A stretch of DNA of 64,000 bases from a virus: IMG/VR virus record IMGVR_UViG_3300046373_000172, positions 23,476 to 87,475 of that record; one strand, 5' to 3'. Below are positions 2,627-64,000 of the stretch, one piece after another (the stretch's first letter is position 1; each line of letters begins with the position of its first letter). The position numbers and the translations under genes were made by a program. The notes beneath the pieces were generated by a model. It ran no database searches, was not told the origin of the DNA, and saw only the letters and a list, made by a program, of their open reading frames with translations.

Positions 2627-5600
2627 ATGCCTAATTTCTACTACTACCAGAAGCAGGGTGGCGAGAACGTCTGGCTGCCGTCGCCGGTGGCGGATCGTGT
2701 GCGGCTCGAAGACGAGGATCGGCCGGAGTTCATCTCCGTGCTGGCCGTGTCGCGCATCATCGACGACGAGATCACCTACGAAGACAAGCTCAAGCTGACC
2801 TATGCCGGCCCGCTGTACTTCGACTGGGACTCGTCCGACGAGCAGCTGGTGATCGAGAAGGTGAACCAGTTCCTGGACCACCTGGTCACGCTGCGGGTCA
2901 ACCTGGAGATGTGCAAGCTGTTCGCCACGGGCGGGCGGGGTTACCACTTGGAGATCCCGCAGTCGATGCTGATGGACAAGATCCCGCCCAAGGGTGTGCT
3001 GGGCCTGCCTTACATCTACCGTGAGATGGCCTACGAGATGGCGGTCGACACCTTGGACTTGCGTATCTACTCGGGGCTGAAGGGCCGCATGTGGCGCGTG
3101 GCGAATGTGCGCCGGGACAACGGCCGCTACAAGGTGCCTATCCGTGTTTCGGAGATGCGCGCCATGACGCCGGAGATGTGCCGCGAACTGACCTCTTCGC
3201 CACGCCGGGTGGTCGAAGTGGTCAACGCCGCCTACTCGCCCGAGCTGGCCATGATCTACGAGACGGGCAAGCAGAAGGTCGAAGACATCACGCTCAAGCG
3301 CAAGCGCTTCAAGCCTGACCCGGAAGCGGCCAAGCGGGCGCACTCCGAGTCGATCCAGGCGGCGATGGCCGGCTTTGGCCTGAAGGATGGCGCCGGCTTC
3401 CACCCGATCGGCATGCAACTTGCCCAAGCCGCCTGCACGGCGGGCCTGTCGATGGAGCAGTTCATCACCGAGTGCGCCGGCTTGATCGCCAACCACCGCG
3501 GCGACGGCGAGCGTTACAGCACACCGAAGAAGCGCGAGGACGAACTGCGCCGGATGCACCGCTACATGGACGGCAACGCCTGCTACGAGTTCTCGATCGG
3601 CGCCATCAAGTCGCTGCTGGCCCACCCGGCGCCCGACCTGGACGGCGTGCCGATCTCGGCGGAGGAGCTGAAAGAGGTGATCGCTGCGGCGGACACCTCG
3701 GCCGGAGAGGAAGACGAGTATGGCGACGTGGCGCGCGGCATCACGCTGTCCAAGTACGGCGTGTACAAGTGGGTCGAGGGGATCAGCAAGCGGGTCTGCG
3801 CGGTGTCGTTCGACACCTCGGACCTGCTGCTGTCGTCGGAGAGTTCGACCATCATCGGCTACTCGTCGACCGTGCTGGTCAACGGGCGTTCGGTCGGGCG
3901 CCAGGTGTTGGAGACCGAGATCTTCAGCGCGCTCAATCCGTTCAACCGGTTCGCACAAAAATATGGCCACACCTTCGTGGGCAATGACCAAGACGTGCGC
4001 GTGGCGATGATGCGCTTCGTCGAGGCGGCAAAGAAAAGAGGCAGTCAAATGTACGTGGTAAAACGAGAAGGCCTGGACGTGCTCAGCGTGCCGGATCACC
4101 CGGACGAATTCTTCCGCTCCCCCTTCGTGGTGTGGGCCGAGGCGTCCGAAGTGTGGACGTCGGAAGAACTGGCCGAGCGCGGTATGAAGATGAAGTTCCT
4201 GGGGCACCCCGACCAGCGCGGCGTGATGCGCACCGACCTGTCCCTGGCGCCGTCGCTGCCGTCCTGGCTCAAGGAACCTGGCAACAAGGAGCTGATGCGC
4301 CTGACGCTCGAGAACCTGATGTCGTGCCAGAAGGCGGACTTGATGGGCAAGCTGATCGGCTGGTACGTGTCCTGCTTCTGGAAGCAGATCTTCAACCACA
4401 CCTATTCCAAGTTCCCGCTGCTGCACGTGAACGGCGCAGCGGGGGTGGGGAAATGCTTGGGCAGGGGCACCCCGGTGTTGCTGGCCTGCGGCCAAACCTG
4501 CAACGTCGAAGACATTCGGACTGGGGACCTGCTTATGGCGCCCGACGGAGGTGTGCGCACGGTACTGTCTACGACCCAGGGCTTTGACCGCATGTTCCGC
4601 GTCTCCCAGTGGTTTGAAGGCAAGCCGCTGGAAACCTACACCGTGAATGCTGCGCACATCTTGAGCCTGCGGCATTACCGCACTGGTGAGGTGTTGAACA
4701 CCAACGTCGAAGATTTCCTCGACATTGACGGGCCAGAGGACAATATCTACCTGGGGTGGCAGGTCCCTGGGATTTTGGAGAAGGACTTGACCCCTCGGCT
4801 GGTCGAGATCGAGATTGAAGAGATGCCGGCAGACGATTACTACGGCTTCACGATCGACGGCGATCACCTGTTCCTGTTGGGCGACTTCACGGTCACCCAC
4901 AACACGGAGACGAACGAACTACTTGGCTCCTTCTTCTTCTACAAGCAGGAGGTGCACACGATGTCGCCGTCGTCGACCATCTTCGCCTTAAACCAGCACT
5001 TGGCTGCGTCGGCGTCGATTCCCCTGATCGTCGACGAATACAAGCCGGCGGAGATGAAGGCCGAGCTGCACAACCGGATGAAGCAGATGTTCCGGGACGC
5101 CTACAACCAGCGCCAGATTTCACGCGGCGGCGGTACCCGGGAGTCGGACGACTTCCGCACGCTGCAGCAAGTCGAGATGGCCGCGCCGCTGGTGTTTATC
5201 GCGGAAGCGGCCGAGGACGAGGCGGCGGTGATGGAGCGCGTCGTCTTGGCCACCTTCACCCGTCCGCCGGCGATCATCGGGCTGAAGAACCTGGCCAAGT
5301 TCCAGCAGGTGCGCCAGCACCGCCACTTGCTTGGCATCCTTGGGCAGCACATGGCCGCCAAGATCGTGCGCACCTTGACCTTCGACGGTTTCCGCGCAGA
5401 GTTCGACGCCCTGTATGAGGTGGCGCAGAATACCTACATGCTGACCGAGAAGGACTTGACCAACACCACGCTGACGGACACGGAGCGCATGAACAAGCAG
5501 AACGCCAAGGAGCGCTCGGTGTTCAACCACACGGTGGCCAAGTACGGCTTCCAGCAGTTCCGCGCGCTGGTCAATGAGATCGTCGACGACGAAAGCCTGG

Positions 5601-48369: not shown

Positions 48370-50103
48370 TTAACGCATGCTGCCGTAGACCATTGTCTCC
48401 TTCCGGGTGGCTACTTTGATGCGGTGCGCAATGCTGATATTGGTCAGCGGGAACTGGATACTGGCGGTTGGCATCAGCAGGGTGGCGATGTTCAAATAGC
48501 CCAAGGCGTGGTGGTAGTGGTCCTCGTCGTTTGGCTTTTTGACCCAGGTGTAGCGGCCGTCGCCGAAGGCGTCCTGGACCAAGGTGCGCTTCATGTCAAG
48601 CATCTGGTTGACGAACAGCGTGTCTTCCTGCTCGCTCTGGGCCTGCCACAGGACCTGCTTGGTCTTGAACAGCTTCATCAGTTCGTCGAAGCCGACGTCG
48701 CGGTTGAGCTTGGCGATCAGCAGGGGCAGCTTGCCTTCCGCCTCGTTCTGCTCCCGGGTCACGATGTCGAACAGCGCCACGTTGCGCGTGGTGTTGTAGC
48801 GTCCGGCGTACATGTTCAGGTCGTCTTTTTGCAGGTCCAGGATCAAGTCGGTGTAGGGCTGGTGATCCCAGACGCTGGTCAGCACGCGGTATTCCTGCTT
48901 GAGCTTGGCGGAACGCTCGCGCAGCATGGGCAGCGCCACCCGCTCGCGGTGTACCACGATCAGCATGCCTTCGTTGGTGCGGCGGCCGATCGTGATGTGG
49001 CACACGGCGCCCAAGTCGACGCCCATGGCGTGCAGATCGGACGACAGCAGGCCGCCGGCGGTGTACTTGCACTGCTCGATGTCTTCCCGGGTCAGCGTCT
49101 CACTCGTTTCGCTGCTGGTCTCGCCCAGGGTCTGGTTGCAGAACTCGCCCCAAGGGAACTTGGTGGACTCCTCGACGATGCGGTGCACTGGCACGATGTT
49201 CGGCACTGAGAACGGCGTCACATAGTAGCCGTGCGCGTTCAGCTGGTCGTTCGGATTTTCGAAGACCCACTCGCGGTGCTCGAACTGCAAGCTGGGGGCG
49301 CGTCCACAGTGCGGGCAGCAGACGTACGCCTCCTTGTAGCGGATCGTCATCAGGTTGTGCGCGGAGATTTCGTTCTTCGGCTTGTCGTAGCCGGGGATGA
49401 CGACGTGCTCGTGGTAGGTCGGGGCGAAGTGATGGTTGCACTTGTCGCACTTGACCAGGTGGCGCTTGCGCTTGCTCTCCTCCATGGCGGCAGCGATGCC
49501 GACGCCGTTGAAGGTCGGGGTGCCGAACTTGCGGGTGAACTGCCAGATCGAGTGCTTCAGACGCGACTGGTACTGCTTCAGGGTGAACGGGTCGCTGCGG
49601 TCGACCTCGTCGTGGATCAACATGTCGGCCGGCACGGACAAGGCTTGGGTGGTGCCGCGCGTGCCGCGGCCGTGCAGCAGGTTGCCGCCGATGTCCTTGG
49701 TCTGGGTGTTGTTGATCTCCTGGCGCACCACCTCGGCCAAGTCTGGGCTGTCGTTGATGACCGGATCGATCCGGGTCTGGAAGAACTTGGCGCAATCCTG
49801 CGCGCCCGGCATCGTCAGGATGCAGTCGAAGTACGGAATCACGCGGCAGATGGCCAAGGCGTAGCGCGCCATGACTTCCGACATGCCGACCTGCGCGCAT
49901 TTCTGGACATTCACGTTGACGTGCGTGTCCGAGATGATGTCCTTTTGGTACTCGTGGTCCTTGAACGAGTACAGGTCGCCGTTCAGGTAGGTCTTTTCTT
50001 CGATGTAGCGGACCACGTCTTGCAGGTTGTAGGTGCCAAAACAGGCCGTGTGCAAGCGCAAAATGTGCTCCTGCACCGCTTTATCGTCGTGAATGAACTC
50101 CAT
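48370..50103 (-). CDS. terL: terminase large subunit (lambda gpA-like)
   Basis: KCAQVGMSE, HDEVD, GTPT, CDKC/CPHC, GVDLG, DHYHHA. Confidence 0.92.
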   Translation of the reverse strand: MEFIHDDKAVQEHILRLHTACFGTYNLQDVVRYIEEKTYLNGDLYSFKDHEYQKDIISDTHVNVNVQKCAQVGMSEVMARYALAICRVIPYFDCILTMPGAQDCAKFFQTRIDPVINDSPDLAEVVRQEINNTQTKDIGGNLLHGRGTRGTTQALSVPADMLIHDEVDRSDPFTLKQYQSRLKHSIWQFTRKFGTPTFNGVGIAAAMEESKRKRHLVKCDKCNHHFAPTYHEHVVIPGYDKPKNEISAHNLMTIRYKEAYVCCPHCGRAPSLQFEHREWVFENPNDQLNAHGYYVTPFSVPNIVPVHRIVEESTKFPWGEFCNQTLGETSSETSETLTREDIEQCKYTAGGLLSSDLHAMGVDLGAVCHITIGRRTNEGMLIVVHRERVALPMLRERSAKLKQEYRVLTSVWDHQPYTDLILDLQKDDLNMYAGRYNTTRNVALFDIVTREQNEAEGKLPLLIAKLNRDVGFDELMKLFKTKQVLWQAQSEQEDTLFVNQMLDMKRTLVQDAFGDGRYTWVKKPNDEDHYHHALGYLNIATLLMPTASIQFPLTNISIAHRIKVATRKETMVYGSMR

Positions 50104-50535
50104 TTAGACGCCTTTTCCCTGCAAAATCTCGCTGTAAATGGTGAAAAAGTGCTCTTTTGCCTCGTTATCGGGCAAAAGTTTGAGGGTGGAGAGCATGGCA
50201 GCCTCAAAACGCTTCAAACGCTCCTGGCTGTAGACTTCGCTGCGCAGTTTGATGATCTTTTCCAGTTGCGCGCTGACGCTGTTGAAGACTTGCGCGCGCT
50301 GCCCGGCCGGCGTGAGTTTGTCGTCCTGCAAGCTCGATAGCAGCATCTTCCCCTGCCGATACTGCAAGCCGATCTCGTCCGGCAGGTTCAACTGGCTGAT
50401 TTCGATGTGCAAGATGGCGTCGAGCTCGTTGCGCACAACGATGGCGTCGGCTTCGGAGAGGTCGCGCATGGCGCGGAGGATGATTTTGAGCGGGCCGTTC
50501 TCTTCGCTCGAGCGCTTTAGGCTGTAGTCTTGCAT
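50104..50535 (-). CDS. probable terminase small subunit
   Basis: helical 143-aa ORF immediately upstream of terL. Confidence 0.6.
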   Translation of the reverse strand: MQDYSLKRSSEENGPLKIILRAMRDLSEADAIVVRNELDAILHIEISQLNLPDEIGLQYRQGKMLLSSLQDDKLTPAGQRAQVFNSVSAQLEKIIKLRSEVYSQERLKRFEAAMLSTLKLLPDNEAKEHFFTIYSEILQGKGV

Positions 50536-50831
50536 TTCAGTCGCTCCAGGGTGCGGTGGATGGTCTTCACGCTGCAGTGGGCGGCAGAAGCGGCTTGTTC
50601 GGGGGTCATGGTGGTGGCGACCAGCGCCTGGTACTCCTTGCGGGCGTGGTAGAGCGCGCTGGCCTTCTGGCGTTCGCTGGGTGCTTTGACGATCCCAAGG
50701 TCTTTCAGGGTCCTGGACAGGTGCGCTTCCGAGACGCCGAGGCGCTTGGCGACGTCCCTACTGGTGACTTTCCTTTCGGCTAAGTCGTCCAGATAGGGAG
50801 TCACGGTCTGTTTGAGCGTCGGCTTTTTCAT
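50517..50831 (-). CDS. HTH DNA-binding protein with two HTH-like segments
   Basis: SRDVAKRLGVSEAHLSR and PEQAASAAHCSVKTIHR. Confidence 0.75.
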   Translation of the reverse strand: MKKPTLKQTVTPYLDDLAERKVTSRDVAKRLGVSEAHLSRTLKDLGIVKAPSERQKASALYHARKEYQALVATTMTPEQAASAAHCSVKTIHRTLERLKCKTTA

Positions 50832-50837
50832 TTCCGG

Positions 50838-50866
50838 ATTCTGGCACGGAAGTTGCCTGTGGTCAA
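50838..50866 (-). promoter_or_regulatory. late promoter copy 1
   Basis: TTGACC-ACAGGCAACTTCCGTGC-CAGAAT. Confidence 0.75.
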
Positions 50867-50885
50867 ATTTGCCGTGGTTTGCTGT

Positions 50886-51001
50886 GGCCTGTGGATAACT
50901 CTATGGAAAATTTGGAAAAATTTTTTCTTGGGCGAGTGTTGGCCGTGTTTGGCCACGTTTGCGATGCGGCCTGTGGATAACCCTATGGAAAATTTGGAAA
51001 A
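50886..51001 (+). repeat. 34-bp direct repeat (x2), each with a perfect DnaA box
   Basis: GGCCTGTGGATAACYCTATGGAAAATTTGGAAAA at 50886 and 50968; TGTGGATAA at 50890 and 50972. Confidence 0.85.
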
Positions 51002-51114
51002 TATTTTGGGAGCCTGGGCGCGGCGCGCGTCGCCCGTACTGCAAATAACCCTATACGTCAAACAGCGCCGCCCGTACCGCCATCCGTATAACCGGCCGCA
51101 TAACTGCCGCCAAT

Positions 51115-51130
51115 TGTTCCACGTGGAACA
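51115..51130. promoter_or_regulatory. parS-type palindrome
   Basis: TGTTCCACGTGGAACA, perfect 16-bp palindrome. Confidence 0.85.
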
Positions 51131-51176
51131 TAACCGGAATCGGCCGTGCCGGTTGCGTTGCCGGTTGCGTGCGCAT

Positions 51177-51192
51177 TGTTCCACGTGGAACA
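51177..51192. promoter_or_regulatory. parS-type palindrome
   Basis: second identical TGTTCCACGTGGAACA. Confidence 0.85.
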
Positions 51193-51468
51193 AATGACGC
51201 TGCCGGTTACGCTGCCGTTTGCATTGCCGTTTGCATTGCCGTTTGGCCAGCTCGGCACGATGTTGTCATTATGACCACTATACTCGAACGCGTATAGAAA
51301 TGCAAATCGGTATAATCGAACTAGTATTGGTATTCTCACTTTCAACCGACTACAATAGATACATCGGTTGAGTGAATACAGCCGGTTCCCTGGTAACGCG
51401 GGGTTTGCGGGATCGCGCATGGTGCGCGCCCGCTGGGCATCTGTGCCTGTTCATTTGGAGATTATGCC

Positions 51469-52323
51469 ATGAAATCCGCTATTCTCGGCGCACCTGCTGC
51501 GCCTGCATCCCAGCTTGCCGCTATGTCGGGCGTGTCTGTCGCCGCATCGCAAGCTATCGCCTTGCCAACGTCCCAAGCTGGGCAGTACGTCCGCGCTGAT
51601 GTCAAAGGCGGCGACGCACAGCACGCATTCCGCGTCGGTATCATCCGTACGGCCGTGCTGGAATCGCTGAAAGGAAACGGCGTCCCGATGGCGGAAGCGC
51701 TGGATCAAGCCGAAGGCAAACGCACGATCGCCGTTTGCTACCGCGCCGGCATCGCCGCCATTGGTGAGCTGGCCCGGCTTGATCGCGCTGGCGACGTGTT
51801 CGCCGACGTGGTCGAAAACGAGATCGTCACGGGCCGCAAGCTGCTGAGCGCTGGCAAGTGGGCCGATGCGGACAATAAAGCCGTGCGCGCCGATGCGGAA
51901 ACGCTGGCCGATGCCGCTGCCGTGCGCTTTGACAGTGCGTTTACTACGTGCGCCAAAGACTTGAAAGAGCAGGCCAAGGCGGATAAGGCCAGCAAAGCGG
52001 CCGAAAAAGCGGCCGCCGATGCGCTGGCTGTTGCGCTGGTGAAAGCGGCGAATGATGCGCCCTTGAACACGGCAGGCGACGATGCCGGCTCGGATGCGGG
52101 CGCTGGCGCTGGTTCGATTGATCCTGATACGCTGGCTAGCGCTGCGGATCAAGCCTCTGTCATGCGCGCCGCTGCGCTGGCCACAGTACTTGACGCGATC
52201 AAGCAGGGCATGCTGTCCGGGCCTGAATTGGAAGCGATCAACGCCGCATTGGATAGCGTCGCATTGGGTATCGCGTACTTGCCTGTAACCGAAGCGGCCG
52301 CACCTGAGCTGGCTGTCCACTAG
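51469..52323 (+). CDS. Ala-rich early protein of unknown function
   Basis: GGAGA RBS; 284 aa; first gene of the rightward early block. Confidence 0.8.
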   Translation: MKSAILGAPAAPASQLAAMSGVSVAASQAIALPTSQAGQYVRADVKGGDAQHAFRVGIIRTAVLESLKGNGVPMAEALDQAEGKRTIAVCYRAGIAAIGELARLDRAGDVFADVVENEIVTGRKLLSAGKWADADNKAVRADAETLADAAAVRFDSAFTTCAKDLKEQAKADKASKAAEKAAADALAVALVKAANDAPLNTAGDDAGSDAGAGAGSIDPDTLASAADQASVMRAAALATVLDAIKQGMLSGPELEAINAALDSVALGIAYLPVTEAAAPELAVH

Positions 52324-53190
52324 ACCACATATCAAGCGCCTTGCTCTACAGGGCGCTTGAGTATGTTGTCTGTAACACAGCGTTTCATCCGATTGCCATA
52401 ACGCGCGGCGCGTTGCTCTAAAGGGGCGTGCCACTAATCGGAATGCTAGCCGTACTGTCTAGAGCATCGCCTTGCGCGCCGCTTTAGCTGTACAGCACAC
52501 CTGTTCTTTATCCGCCCGGCGCAACGCGCCCGGCCACAATTGAGACTCTATCCGGCCCTACCGGAAGAACCCATGCATGTATGACGTGATTGACGCGCAT
52601 CGTGCCGCTTAGGCGGCATGCCGCGTTGTTAGGCACATCAAGCATGGTGCGGTTTGGACAGTAGCAGGATAGATGCGTTTTAGTAGAAACGCTAACTTAC
52701 TACTCTTGCCGATTCAGGATGACGAACGATGATATCGGCTTGTATGCACAATCTAGGCTTGAATGTAAGCCATCTCTACCGGGTTTGGATGACGGTACAG
52801 GTTCGCAAAAGGGGCACAGGTAACGCCGAACGGCGCCCTTGTGATTACGCAATAGCAGAACAAGAGAAAACGGATTGCACAGACCATCGTGAAAATCGCC
52901 AAAAGGCGCCCGGCCAAACGGGCATACAAATAACGCTTACCCAAGCGGCAAGAGGAAAGGTTAGAGCAAATGTAGGTAGACCGTACGGGAGTCGTCCGTA
53001 CGGCTATGACAACGGCCCGACAAGCCGTTAAGCGCCGGTTTCGGGGCGCATATACCGAACGATAGCAATGCCCTTCCATGCTTGAGGTATGGAAGGGCGG
53101 CAAATTAAAACGCATTCCGCGAGTGCTTTTTAATGTGCTGTATCTTCCGCCTGGCCTTTTTGGCTAGGCATTGCCACGTCCAAAAGGAGA
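52322..53190 (+). ncRNA. candidate large structured non-coding RNA (boundaries approximate)
   Basis: no credible ORF; many local and long-range helices, several with G-U pairs on this strand. Confidence 0.55.
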
Positions 53191-53196
53191 ATCACT

Positions 53197-53439
53197 ATGT
53201 CCAATCGTTGCACGTTCAATCTGTTCACGGCCGCGGAACGTTCGGCCAATTGGGAAGTCCGCAAGGGCGAAGATCGCCGCGCACTGCTGGCAATTATCTT
53301 CGAAGCGAATCACGCTTGCGTGCATCCGTTGAATCACAACTACGTTGCCGACATCAGCGACAAAGAGCGCCTTGAGTATTGGGCGCGCAGCAATGGCCTG
53401 TTGTCGTCGGCCGATGAGCGGACTTTGCGCGGATACTAA
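53197..53439 (+). CDS. early hypothetical protein
   Basis: AAGGAG RBS. Confidence 0.75.
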   Translation: MSNRCTFNLFTAAERSANWEVRKGEDRRALLAIIFEANHACVHPLNHNYVADISDKERLEYWARSNGLLSSADERTLRGY

Positions 53440-53574
53440 GCGCAATATCCGGTAATACATAACGCTTTTCACCCTGTACCGCCTTGGCGGTACTATCTTT
53501 TCAGCACCGCTGTATCCAAACCTATATAACGCCTGGCCAAGTGGTCGGGCATAGTCACGTCCGGAGAAAACATC

Positions 53575-53754
53575 ATGAGCAAAGCACAACACTATGAGCT
53601 GGCTGAGAAAATCCATGCTGCATCGGTTGCACGCTGCAATCGCATGCTGGCCATGCTCGACGGTCAGCAGCAAGCGGAAGCGATTCGCGCGTCGGTTGCG
53701 GCGCAGTTGGCGCTCGATGCCTTCATGGAATCGCTGGTGCATCGCCATGCGTGA
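53575..53754 (+). CDS. early hypothetical protein (59 aa, not in ORF track)
   Basis: GGAGA RBS; MSKAQHYELAEKIHAAS...HRHA. Confidence 0.65.
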   Translation: MSKAQHYELAEKIHAASVARCNRMLAMLDGQQQAEAIRASVAAQLALDAFMESLVHRHA

Positions 53755-53863
53755 ACTGGGCCGAATCCTCACCAACGGCGCGCTATTTTGGCTGTGGTTC
53801 GGCTATGCCGTTTGGGCCGCGCTTGAAGTCATCAACGTGCCTTGGGCCTTGTATGTCGGCTAG
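53747..53863 (+). CDS. 38-aa membrane peptide
   Basis: MRELGRILTNGALFWLWFGYAVWAALEVINVPWALYVG; overlaps upstream stop. Confidence 0.5.
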   Translation: MRELGRILTNGALFWLWFGYAVWAALEVINVPWALYVG

Positions 53864-53936
53864 GCAACGAAGCCGAACAGCAGTACAGTAGTGCTCATAG
53901 GCAAATCGTGTTGCCTTTCAACTTTGGGAGTTCATC

Positions 53937-54182
53937 ATGCGTGATTTTCCTGTAATGCCATCGGACGATGTGCCGGCTTTCCGCGAAAAAGAGCACAAAT
54001 TCAACCTGCACGCTTCGCAAGGCAAATGGCGTGTTGGTATTGCTACCAACACCGCGACCGGCGTTTACTCGTTCGACAAGGGCGACGCGATCCGTTTCCA
54101 CGTCATAGGCAAAACGGTACCTTTCCAGGACTTGCCGAACGCGGTGCGCTTGCTGCTGTGCGAGCTGGGGTTTGAAGCCTAG
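53937..54182 (+). CDS. early hypothetical protein
   Basis: GGGAG RBS; followed by terminator. Confidence 0.7.
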   Translation: MRDFPVMPSDDVPAFREKEHKFNLHASQGKWRVGIATNTATGVYSFDKGDAIRFHVIGKTVPFQDLPNAVRLLLCELGFEA

Positions 54183-54185
54183 TTA

Positions 54186-54211
54186 CAAAAGCGCCCGAAA
54201 GGGCGCTTTTG
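54186..54211. terminator. bidirectional terminator
   Basis: CAAAAGCGCCC-GAAA-GGGCGCTTTTG. Confidence 0.9.
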
Positions 54212-54736
54212 TCATAAGGGCCAAAGCCGACCATGTTTGATGCTAGCGATCGTCGAAACAGTTGTTGAAAAACTAGCTGCGATCTGCTTCACCGAAACAC
54301 CGTCAAAAATCTGCTGGCGTATAAGCGCAACGATTTCAGGTGTTAGACGCTTGGCCCGTTTTGGGTTGTTGGCACCGTGAAACCTTCCTGTCTTGGCCGT
54401 ATGCTGTTGATTCTCTTTTGGCGTGACCCATTCAAGATTGTTGACGTGGTTATTAGCCTTATCGAAGTCTTTATGGTTGACCTGCGGCCGGGTGTCGGCC
54501 GGCAGGAAGTGCAAAGCTACAAGTCGGTGAATTGCGTGTTTGCGCACTACGCCTTCGCGTGACAAGCAAACATAGCAGTAACCTTGAGCATCTCGAACTT
54601 GAGTAGGATTGCGACCAGCAACCGCTCGACTTCCGCCTGGACTTTTAACCCTTCGAGAAAGACTCTTGACATTGCCGAAGTTACTGACAATGTATAAGCC
54701 GTGAAAACCTTGGATAGACGCCCAAACTTCAAGCAT
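54212..54736 (-). CDS. NUMOD4-HNH homing endonuclease with C-terminal HTH
   Basis: EVWASIQGFHGLYIVSNFGNVKS; IHRLVA..F...VNHKDFDKANNHVNNLEW; AGGAG RBS. Confidence 0.9.
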   Translation of the reverse strand: MLEVWASIQGFHGLYIVSNFGNVKSLSRRVKSPGGSRAVAGRNPTQVRDAQGYCYVCLSREGVVRKHAIHRLVALHFLPADTRPQVNHKDFDKANNHVNNLEWVTPKENQQHTAKTGRFHGANNPKRAKRLTPEIVALIRQQIFDGVSVKQIAASFSTTVSTIASIKHGRLWPL

Positions 54737-55424
54737 TAGGTTCTCCTGGAAACACGGGAAAGCACTGCTGCGTAGTCGAGTCAAACTTCATATGGGTCGC
54801 GCCGTCCAAAAAGGCTTGACACCTAACCTTATAATCGTCAGCAGGACAAATTGCTGGCGGCACCGAAACCCATTGATTCGCGTGCCAATACCAAAGACGG
54901 CCCGGAACGTCGGCCGGCGGCTTTCTAACCGGCTTCTTGATGACAAGTCGCGGCGTACGCATCGGCCGATGATAAGCATCAGCGGGCCGCCCCAAGTCGC
55001 GCGCCCGTTCGAGTTCTAGCACGTGCTGCACTTCGAGTTCCATTTCCCGCCAGACGCATGCGGCCCAATCTTGTCGTGCGACTTCGATCGACGGGAAATA
55101 GACGCCCGGCGACAAGATGTGATGAAAACCGCGTGCACAAGCCTTGCAGTTGAAGCGGCGCCGCGCGATGCGGATCGGCACCAAGTTGCGCACGGAAAAG
55201 TCAAACGGATCCCCGTTCAGTTGGGTAATCTGAAACATCGGAGCTGATCCGTAGAGCAAGACCCAAGCCAAGTCCGGCCCTTGGTATAGCTGGCCGTCGA
55301 CATGGGCCACGAGTCGGTTTTGCACGACCGAAGTCAGTAGTTTTAGTGTGCCGTCCGCCTTAATGCGGTAGAGCTGCGTGTGTAAGAGTCGAAAATTTTG
55401 TGTCACCAGTGCGGTGTTGATCAT
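54729..55424 (-). CDS. protein with degenerate HNH-like domain
   Basis: DLAWVLLYG..P...TQLNGDPFDFSVRNL follows HNH spacing but lacks the His/Asn residues. Confidence 0.55.
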   Translation of the reverse strand: MINTALVTQNFRLLHTQLYRIKADGTLKLLTSVVQNRLVAHVDGQLYQGPDLAWVLLYGSAPMFQITQLNGDPFDFSVRNLVPIRIARRRFNCKACARGFHHILSPGVYFPSIEVARQDWAACVWREMELEVQHVLELERARDLGRPADAYHRPMRTPRLVIKKPVRKPPADVPGRLWYWHANQWVSVPPAICPADDYKVRCQAFLDGATHMKFDSTTQQCFPVFPGEPNA

Positions 55425-55924
55425 GGGAAACTTTCTAAAGTTGGACATTTCTGCCAAAACTTGCGTAAAAAGATTTTAGCACAAGGTTCTCACCCAAGTC
55501 CACACGATCCCAAGTCGAAAAGCCCCTATATATAAGACAAACCTAGTAGATATCTCATTAGTATGGGGAGTTCTCATTTTCGTGTTCGAAACGCGCTTTT
55601 GACTTTTTGACTTTTTTTTTGTGTCAGTCCATTTTTTCTGTGGCGTGATTTTCCTTATTAGGCGATTTTCAAAAAGTGGCCCTTAATCATGCGATTCTCA
55701 CAGGTCGTCTGTCATGCCTTTCATGCAACCTTGGGCATGTGACAACACCGAAACAGTGTTTTCGTTACCCTGACGCAATGTTGTTTATTTTGGATGTCTA
55801 AAAGAGTATACATTACGTAAATGTTTCTTCTGTTACTACATATATTCTCACACCAAAAAACCTGTTACTAGTAGCATGACTTTCGCACTTACACGAACCC
55901 AAGCAACATACTATAGGAAGTGAG

Positions 55925-56167
55925 ATGTTTACATTTTTGAAAGAACTTGTCTTTCCGACACCGTCTGTACCAAAATTACTACGCTCTGCGCTCGAAGATA
56001 GCCAGCGCGAGTTGCTTTTGCTTGACATCCAGCAGCAGCACATGCTAGCCGAGGCTGAAAATTACTCCGCGGCAAGGTTGAAGCACGAAAACAGGGTAAA
56101 ACGACTGACTGACTCGCTTAAAAGGCTTGAGAATCAAGCACTTACCCGCACTGGTCCGGATGATTGA
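55925..56167 (+). CDS. helical hypothetical protein
   Basis: AGGAAG RBS; amphipathic coiled-coil sequence. Confidence 0.55.
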   Translation: MFTFLKELVFPTPSVPKLLRSALEDSQRELLLLDIQQQHMLAEAENYSAARLKHENRVKRLTDSLKRLENQALTRTGPDD

Positions 56168-56313
56168 CACGCCACTGACTCAACTGACTCGATTTTTGTC
56201 AATTGACACTGACACAGCCGTGTCAGTCAGTTTTGTGTCATCTGTGTCATACTGCGTGTCAGACCCGCACAAGTTGTGCGGCCTCCCGCACAAACCTCCA
56301 AAAGGACCAAGAA

Positions 56314-63774: not shown

Positions 63775-64000
63775 TGAACACCATGCAAGCTTTTCTCATG
63801 GGCGTAGCCCACCGCGACAGCCCGATGAAGGTTTTCGATTGGTGCAAGGCCGCCACCGTCATTGCCGAGCGCCACCCTAGTTATGCCAGCGCCGGCCTGG
63901 AGGGTGACCTGGAATACACGGAAGGGTGCATCTGGAAGACGAACTGCGTGCCGGAGCGTGGCGATAGCTACTTGGCCTCCGTCTGGGCCACGCCACTGTT
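63774..64000 (+). CDS. phage hypothetical protein (truncated by window edge)
   Basis: AAGGAAA RBS; MNTMQAF..G...KVFDW.KAA...ASAGL. Confidence 0.7.
   Translation, partial: MNTMQAFLMGVAHRDSPMKVFDWCKAATVIAERHPSYASAGLEGDLEYTEGCIWKTNCVPERGDSYLASVWATPL

Follow-up and report, generated by a model that had tools for sequence, protein, structure and literature searches.

That a phage can exploit the ParB protein of its host is not unprecedented. The Bacillus phage phi29 carries five parS sites bound by the host protein Spo0J (Meijer et al. 2005 EMBO J, in the summary given by PMC2731898), and the same summary describes how it exploits the host segregation machinery and is trapped in the prespore, and places boxes for the host regulator Spo0A at its promoters and origins. 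Here we analyse a 64,000-nucleotide stretch (hereafter the window) of the viral record IMGVR_UViG_3300046373_000172, covering positions 23476-87475 of its 87,475 bp and with a guanine-cytosine (GC) content of 61%. In this window, a single 637-bp gap between genes holds two exact copies of a chromosomal ParB site, parS, together with two perfect DnaA boxes.

DnaA boxes are part of iteron-type origins such as P1 oriR, F ori2, and RK2 oriV. The 16-bp sequence found in the phage is that of parS2 and parS3 of Pseudomonas aeruginosa, the sites of highest affinity for its ParB, and one copy of this type combined with parAB stabilises a plasmid (PMC4368675). In Caulobacter, ParB spreads ~2 kb from a single parS (PMC5815017), and DnaA-ATP licenses the ParA-driven movement of the ParB-parS complex (Mera et al. 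2014, in the account given by the review PMC6399470). Sites in cis can also suffice to use the system of another replicon, as when the island SGI1 hijacks the parABS of IncC plasmids (PMC10954446). Our literature searches found no paper on orphan parS sites in phages of Gram-negative hosts.

Two parS palindromes and two DnaA boxes share one non-coding gap

All parS and DnaA motifs lie inside the gap at window positions 50832-51468 (Table 1). Open reading frames (ORFs) overlapping it have clearly negative coding scores, indicating that it is truly non-coding, and the flanking genes have positive ones. An earlier note on this DNA, made from the letters of the window, had reported two identical parS palindromes here and two perfect DnaA boxes in direct repeats, all between diverging late and early gene blocks. 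Each of these sites is present and exact, the repeats extend to 43 nt, and the gap is the point from which transcription diverges.

The palindrome, TGTTCCACGTGGAACA, occurs twice, both copies lying in a common 18-nt repeat. It fits the TGTTNCACGTGAAACA-type consensus of chromosomal parS, as the earlier note had recognised, and equals P. aeruginosa parS2/parS3 at every position. Only 1.3e-5 occurrences of the exact 16-mer are expected in a genome such as this one, in which two were observed. Further parS-like sites were absent from the window at up to three mismatches and from the 87,475-bp record at up to two. Among sampled Pseudomonadota genomes, 47 of 401 contain the exact 16-mer, often paired, compared with 0 of 401 for a reversed control, and this supports the palindrome as a genuine chromosomal parS variant. 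Since chromosomal ParB proteins load promiscuously at any copy of their site, we consider it very likely that host ParB binds the phage sites, provided that the host has a ParABS system.

The DnaA boxes have the form TGTGGATAA (TTATCCACA on the minus strand) and are the only matches to TTATNCACA in the 87 kb, against expectations of ~0.27 exact boxes per genome and 0.002 per 637 bp. They lie 82 bp apart, close enough to form a DnaA box cluster, within direct repeats that span 43 nt each and share 91% identity. Tracts beside each box fall to 25-33% GC. Two groups of 12-bp iteron-like tandem repeats accompany the parS pair; the TGCCGTTTGCAT array was counted as 2.8 copies, and four of the five exact matches to the 12-mer in the genome are concentrated in the group that follows parS-2. 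Altogether, about six 12-bp repeats, A/T-rich segments (122 bp at 40% GC), and two boxes make up an iteron-type layout. The gap is probably a replication origin, given its single point of transcription divergence, its phage-specific iteron-like repeats, its A/T-rich segments, and its DnaA boxes, an arrangement of which one relative shows a textbook version (L034, below).

The first rightward gene, p284, was considered as a Rep initiator and rejected. Ten homologues were aligned and an AlphaFold2 model was built, with a predicted local distance difference test score of 70 and helices throughout; Foldseek returned nothing below E=2 for it from the PDB, and the protein has no Rep, Pfam, PHROG, or PDB match. 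It has a conserved motif near the N terminus (D.KGG...KGN...GK...Y.AG), a linker that is acidic and Ala-rich, and a small helical domain at the C terminus.

The divergent promoter-like sites in the gap raise another explanation, in which ParB, by spreading or as a roadblock, would silence the early promoters or the leftward transcript and so make an early/late switch or dormancy dependent on ParB. The second parS is ~80-95 bp downstream of the promoter-like site that points leftward, and 135 bp upstream of the one that points rightward. According to a passage of a preprint (bioRxiv 10.1101/151340), P. aeruginosa ParB represses promoters adjoining parS3/parS4, and P1 ParB silences genes flanking its centromere (work cited in PMC6399470). 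However, these promoters are consensus matches only, three being found where 1.5 are expected, and many parS sites elsewhere in IMG/VR lie inside long ORFs, where promoter control is unlikely. We regard promoter silencing as a serious alternative, although an improbable one.

The genome is complete and lacks partner genes

Record positions 10-135 are identical to positions 87350-87475 (63875-64000 in the window), a 126-bp end overlap with a 9-nt offset. The assembly is thus circularly closed, which makes the genome effectively complete. Its CheckV completeness is 100%, and the IMG/VR tag for the record is “linear.”

The earlier note had seen no parA, parB, or dnaA in the 64 kb and had asked that the rest of the genome be checked. 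Six-frame hidden Markov model searches were run over the whole 87 kb at E<=1; the same searches matched control genomes. They found no ParB_N (PF02195) or HTH_ParB (PF17762) domain, no ParA domain of the AAA_31 (PF13614) or CbiA (PF01656) type, no DnaA C-terminal domain (DnaA_C), and no tyrosine integrase, so the absence holds beyond the window. With no ParA or ParB domain in a closed genome, the parS sites are orphans rather than part of a complete ParABS module. The phage-encoded replication proteins described earlier are present, namely a helicase, a 1129-residue primase, and PolA. PHROG scans of ~50 proteins detected no marker of lysogeny or of a phage-plasmid (no integrase, ParA/B, or recognisable repressor).

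A genome that looks strictly lytic would also fit sites that serve as a sponge or as sabotage. Replicating phage DNA, present in hundreds of copies that each bear two parS sites and two boxes, would then titrate ParB and DnaA and block host chromosome segregation, division, and re-initiation to the advantage of the phage, and inheritance of the phage would not be the point. A single logic would cover both motifs with no need for a dormant state. In addition, a plasmid-borne strong parS lowers Caulobacter viability ~1000-fold (PMC5815017), and plasmids with the perfect palindrome are not maintainable under excess ParB (PMC4368675). Still, genomes with two sites each would titrate only weakly at an early stage of infection, and the DnaA-box clusters of relatives are origin-like, lying between iteron arrays. 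Some likely host groups, P. aeruginosa among them, can do without ParB (in the same passage of bioRxiv 10.1101/151340), and phi29, the only studied case, uses parS for segregation. We treat titration as a serious alternative that is nonetheless rather unlikely.

The motifs are interleaved with a conserved backbone

The relatives form a large uncultured family of 80-93-kb phages whose large terminase (TerL) is 37-62% identical to that of this phage, and at most 59% identical in the loci compared here. No phage in GenBank has DNA similarity to it, and the best TerL matches there reach ~31% (Vibrio SHOU24-like phages, Caulobacter phage Seuss). Across the family, the order p284 / gap / hth104 - p143 - TerL - portal is kept, where hth104 encodes a helix-turn-helix (HTH) protein. 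The promoter of hth104 is conserved as well, reading TTGACC..TGCCAGAAT or TTGGCA..TGGCATACT in relatives and ending six nt ahead of the hth104 ATG, a spacing that suggests a leaderless mRNA. A sigma-54 reading of CTGGCATACTTATTGCATG in relatives was rejected; the preferred assignment is a sigma-70 extended -10 element homologous to the TTGACC..TGCCAGAAT of the window.

Besides GAAAATTT-type A/T repeats, the backbone of the gap holds a TGACGTATAGGG box (TGACGTATAGGGTTAT on the minus strand). Followed by a CCAGGTGCCC-like element, this box is shared by at least 14 relatives, in which it precedes hth104 by ~200-550 bp (examples are L004 1567, L006 5058, L012 4464, L024 4679, L025 5110, and L082 4734) and may be a packaging or regulatory signal. 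Beyond it comes a hypervariable stretch with phage-specific tandem repeats of 8, 12, 18, or 25 bp, at which several relatives' contigs break. In relatives, the variable stretch that holds parS in this phage carries several ATAGGC-N3-GCCTAT palindromes (L007 ~4267-4400, L010 ~4720-4740, L027 1974-1988, and L082 ~4465-4640).

The DnaA boxes sit between the hth104 promoter and the TGACGTATAGGG box, and the parS sites and 12-bp repeats sit in the hypervariable stretch. This interleaving with family-conserved elements (the hth104 promoter, the TGACGTATAGGG box, and p284) marks the region as phage DNA and rules out a simple chimera of host and phage. A captured plasmid origin or host fragment was rejected on the same ground, together with the lack of any meaningful plasmid match or DNA match to GenBank phages. 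The position beside the terminase genes had led the earlier note to suggest a nearby genome end. That suggestion finds no support. The assembly is circular, and the places where relatives' contigs end do not match the locus; relatives flagged for direct terminal repeats end 1.5-14 kb away, in inconsistent places.

It could also be proposed that the repeats and palindromes bind proteins of the phage itself, such as a small terminase (TerS) at a pac or cos site, an initiator, or the HTH protein, and that their resemblance to parS and DnaA boxes tells nothing about the host. The region adjoins TerS-like and TerL genes, it combines family-conserved boxes with phage-specific tandem repeats where several relatives' contigs break, and relatives have other palindromes in place of parS. 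By contrast, a 16-of-16 match found twice at an expectation of 1.3e-5, and the at least 40-fold enrichment of the 16-mer across unrelated viral contigs, are hard to reconcile with this proposal. The base that varies in relatives' boxes falls exactly where the classical DnaA consensus TTATNCACA is degenerate, and homologues of hth104, p143, and p284 occur in relatives that lack the motifs. A purely phage-protein explanation is accordingly unlikely, and we give it little credence.

Both motifs recur in a few relatives, and parS in viral metagenomes

When the syntenic locus was inspected in relatives, a check proposed by the earlier note, DnaA boxes were found to recur in L026, L030, and L034 and parS in L024, but most loci had neither. 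The upstream regions at this locus (900 bp each, 23.4 kb in total) contain eight TTATNCACA matches, compared with two in the other 288 kb, which makes them ~49-fold denser there (0.342/kb vs 0.007/kb). Counting one event for each phage, boxes in 4 of 27 phages have a probability of ~1e-2 on a uniform expectation and ~3e-5 against the empirical background. Two boxes are adjacent in L030, and four to five, reading TTATGCACA or TTATACACA, occur in L026. At positions 4110-4560 of L034, 18-bp repeats (GGGCCACCCCTCGGGCGG), five of them direct and at least four inverted, enclose three perfect boxes and a hairpin in the classic layout of an origin; IMG/VR classes this record as a provirus. The flanks C-TGTGNATAA-C are common to all relatives' clusters and to the boxes of the window, and CTGTGNATAAC flanks are common to the clusters in L026, L030, and L034.

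The parS-bearing relative, L024, is complete at 93 kb, and ParB_N was not found in it. Its site, TGTTCCACGTGAAACA, falls within a small ORF, ~600 bp ahead of TerL. The chance of a TGTTCCACGTGAAACA-type site across the family loci is ~1e-3, and L024 carries it independently of the pair in this phage. The only named host link for the family is a relative's fragment binned in a Sphingomonadaceae metagenome-assembled genome (MAG). On the chromosome of this MAG (G006:C12:1545-1616) are two TGTTCCACGTGAAACA sites 56 bp apart, the same variant as in L024.

In IMG/VR as a whole, at least 120 contigs contain the exact parS 16-mer, compared with three for a composition-matched reversed palindrome and two for one that keeps the CACGTG core. 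Among the matches listed, the flanks fall into 92 unrelated clusters with GC contents of 30-70%. ParB_N was absent from 48 of the 50 parS records tested; 15 of the 50 have a completeness of 90% or more, and 14 of these lack it. The share of sites in non-coding-like DNA is 13.6%, higher than the 2.7% of random positions (p = 5e-4), and at 11 of the 120 listed loci another parS is found at a distance of ~20 bp to 3.6 kb, mostly within 1 kb. One of them, L188 (5860-5995), is an evident phage in which a parS pair with extra half-sites lies among virion genes, between spanin and RecET-type genes. Other paired loci within L090-L209 are L108 (1505/1802) and L145 (310/334).

These patterns bear on whether the module is a neutral passenger, in the sense of a recent scrap of host DNA without function, or an artefact of a chimeric assembly. 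The lack of the module in most relatives and the hypervariable part of the gap that it occupies would fit such an origin. However, its motifs are interleaved with conserved elements between two syntenic flanking genes, it has no plasmid similarity, and both parS copies and both boxes are free of mutations. Moreover, recurrence in L024, L026, L030, and L034 and the enrichment across IMG/VR argue for selection. We therefore judge a neutral or artefactual origin unlikely, with a very low probability.

Gene layout around the gap

All genes but a few inverted cassettes are transcribed outward from the gap. Leftward (minus strand) lie hth104, the 143-residue p143, the gpA-type large terminase, the portal, and an S49 protease. 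Rightward (plus strand) lie p284 and then a long series of small early genes without assigned function, a run that crosses the contig join to reach the helicase, primase, PolA, ligase, thymidylate synthase, SbcCD, and endolysin genes. Homologues of hth104 are syntenic in about half of the relatives. Those of p143 hold the same position in nearly all family loci, and p143 is a probable small terminase; searches with family profiles gave no match for it.

Coding density is low at window positions 52324-56200, with negative scores for ORFs at 52.7-53.1 kb and for several minus-strand ORFs, and GC content falls to 39-41% at 55.4-56.0 kb. An Rfam scan of window positions 50-57 kb returned nothing above threshold, and no tRNAs were found in the phage genome.

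Table 1. Features in and around the gap (window positions)
Feature	Position	Strand	Basis or remark
Large terminase TerL, gpA-type ATPase	48370-50103	-	phrog_675 E=1.6e-87; PF05876 E=1.3e-21
p143, conserved small protein directly upstream of TerL	50104-50535	-	Positive coding score; syntenic homologues
hth104, HTH DNA-binding protein, first gene of the leftward packaging/late operon	50517-50831	-	PF13384 HTH_23 E=4.5e-8
Sigma-70-type promoter TTGACC-17-(TG)CAGAAT, family-conserved	50838-50866	-	Promoter scan and relatives
Direct repeat A with DnaA box 1 (50890-50898), ATAG(A/G)GTTAT motif, and 25%-GC A/T tract	50883-50925		Sequence
Direct repeat B with DnaA box 2 (50972-50980), flanks as in repeat A	50965-51007		82 bp from repeat A
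Conserved CCAGG..CCC element preceding the TGACGTATAGGG box	~51008-51020		Comparison of relatives
Family-conserved TGACGTATAGGG box	51045-51058	-	Syntenic in at least 14 distinct relatives
parS-1, exact 16-bp chromosomal-type ParB site (predicted)	51115-51130		Sequence match
12-bp tandem repeats TGCCGGTTGCGT, 2 copies, iteron-like, between parS-1 and parS-2	51147-51170	+	Repeat analysis
parS-2, identical to parS-1 (predicted)	51177-51192		62 bp start to start from parS-1
12-bp tandem repeats TGCCGKTTRCRY/TGCCGTTTGCAT, ~4 copies, iteron-like, after parS-2	51201-51246	+	Repeat analysis
40%-GC stretch (122 bp) with divergent promoter-like sites (minus 51306-51277, plus 51327-51356)	51251-51372		Candidate unwinding region
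p284, first rightward (early) gene, Ala-rich, all-helical	51469-52323	+	Coding score +0.31 vs -0.21 for antisense ORF; syntenic homologues

Discussion

With moderate confidence, we favour the explanation that the gap is a control hub and probable origin that offers host ParB and DnaA docking sites in cis only. Placed at the centre from which nearly all genes run outward, the two parS palindromes would load clamps of host ParB with cytidine triphosphate, and ParB would spread over a neighbourhood of ~2 kb that takes in promoters, repeats, and packaging genes, giving each phage genome a host-type partition complex. The two high-affinity DnaA boxes would bring host DnaA beside A/T-rich DNA and iteron-like repeats. 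As a consequence, the phage genome may be handled as if it were a host origin or centromere region. Its replication and/or late transcription could be tied to the DnaA status of the host, and host ParA and ParB could position the unintegrated genome and hand it to daughter cells during a slow or delayed infection (a carrier state). Binding in vivo, origin function, and a benefit to the phage are what we infer from this arrangement. The purely cis-acting recruiting module proposed by the earlier note is partly supported, at the sequence level, by the parS variant, the absence of phage-encoded partners, the recurring boxes, and the point of divergence, but the module is not family-wide.

Several observations weigh against the docking-site explanation. 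About 23 of the 27 distinct relative loci have neither parS nor DnaA boxes, indicating that the module is dispensable for the family and is not conserved throughout it. The two DnaA boxes belong to a single duplicated unit of 43 nt and thus count as one evolutionary event; together with the number of boxes expected by chance per genome, this leaves them only suggestive when this genome is taken alone. The duplicated unit also has ATAGGGTTAT in common with the family-conserved box. Near the viral parS sites listed from IMG/VR, DnaA boxes occur at 5 of 123, compared with ~3.8 expected, so a general linkage of the two motifs in viral contigs, which we had considered, is not seen. No initiator was found, the neighbouring p284 having no Rep-like fold. 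The parS sequence was matched to P. aeruginosa and to sampled Pseudomonadota and may not be the host's variant, and host ParB is itself presumed. The genome has a virulent look, since it encodes a helicase, primase, PolA, ligase, and SbcCD itself but neither an integrase nor a recognisable repressor, and this makes a benefit from partition less obvious. Finally, the toxicity of an extra strong parS in Caulobacter (PMC5815017) fits sabotage at least as well as partition.

More tentatively, many phages well beyond those of sporulating Firmicutes, lytic-looking phages of Gram-negative hosts included, could imitate the host centromere, and some lineages also the host origin, without any protein of their own for it. 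Their control regions would contain host parS, and here DnaA boxes, and the present phage would be a compact example that combines origin and centromere. Host ParABS and DnaA would then treat the unintegrated genome as a transient plasmid, replicating it, positioning it, and transmitting it; alternatively, the host cell cycle would be derailed. We consider this broader proposal possible rather than probable. The census suggests that phi29, the single studied case, stands for something far more widespread. Should host ParB and DnaA really act at the locus described here, the phage would obtain either plasmid-like inheritance or a jammed host cell cycle for ~50 bp and zero genes. In that case, pseudolysogeny and carrier states, which occur commonly in nature but are poorly explained, would also become accessible at a concrete molecular level. 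With two perfect parS sites, adjacent DnaA boxes, and a defined promoter and origin context, the locus is a good test bed.

Among known systems, the iteron-type origins resemble the gap in having DnaA boxes, an A/T-rich segment, and short tandem repeats side by side, with L034 as the textbook form. They differ from it in that no Rep gene is recognised beside the phage repeats and the phage brings its own helicase, primase, and polymerase. The P. aeruginosa parS2/parS3 sites are identical over 16 bp, but they are chromosomal, near oriC, and served by cognate parAB (PMC4368675), whereas the phage copies are orphans. The Caulobacter centromere likewise has DnaA binding beside parS (in the account of PMC6399470). 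However, it is a locus of the host chromosome, possibly of another group than the host of this phage, and the phage boxes are 135-240 bp from parS. Like SGI1, the phage is a mobile element with a site in cis only that would exploit the Par proteins of another replicon, although SGI1 is an integrative mobilisable island that uses those of a helper plasmid and not a phage using a chromosomal system.

The closest likeness is to the virulent Bacillus phages phi29 and Nf, which, like this virulent-looking phage, carry ParB/Spo0J sites of the host chromosome without having parAB. Sites for a host master regulator occur at promoters or origins in both cases, these being Spo0A boxes in phi29 and DnaA boxes here. 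By contrast, the five sites of phi29 are dispersed, whereas this phage has two perfect sites 62 bp apart at one hub. The companion sites differ in kind, and the present phage is known from sequence alone. Moreover, phi29 is trapped in the forespore of a sporulating Firmicute, and this is a 61%-GC phage whose relatives point to non-sporulating Pseudomonadota. Since the probable hosts form no spores, a role of the sites in segregation would have to differ from that in phi29, and inheritance through host ParA and ParB could be the non-sporulating counterpart of Spo0J-mediated spore trapping. What appears to be new is thus a phi29-type case in a different world of phages and hosts, joined to DnaA boxes at a probable origin.

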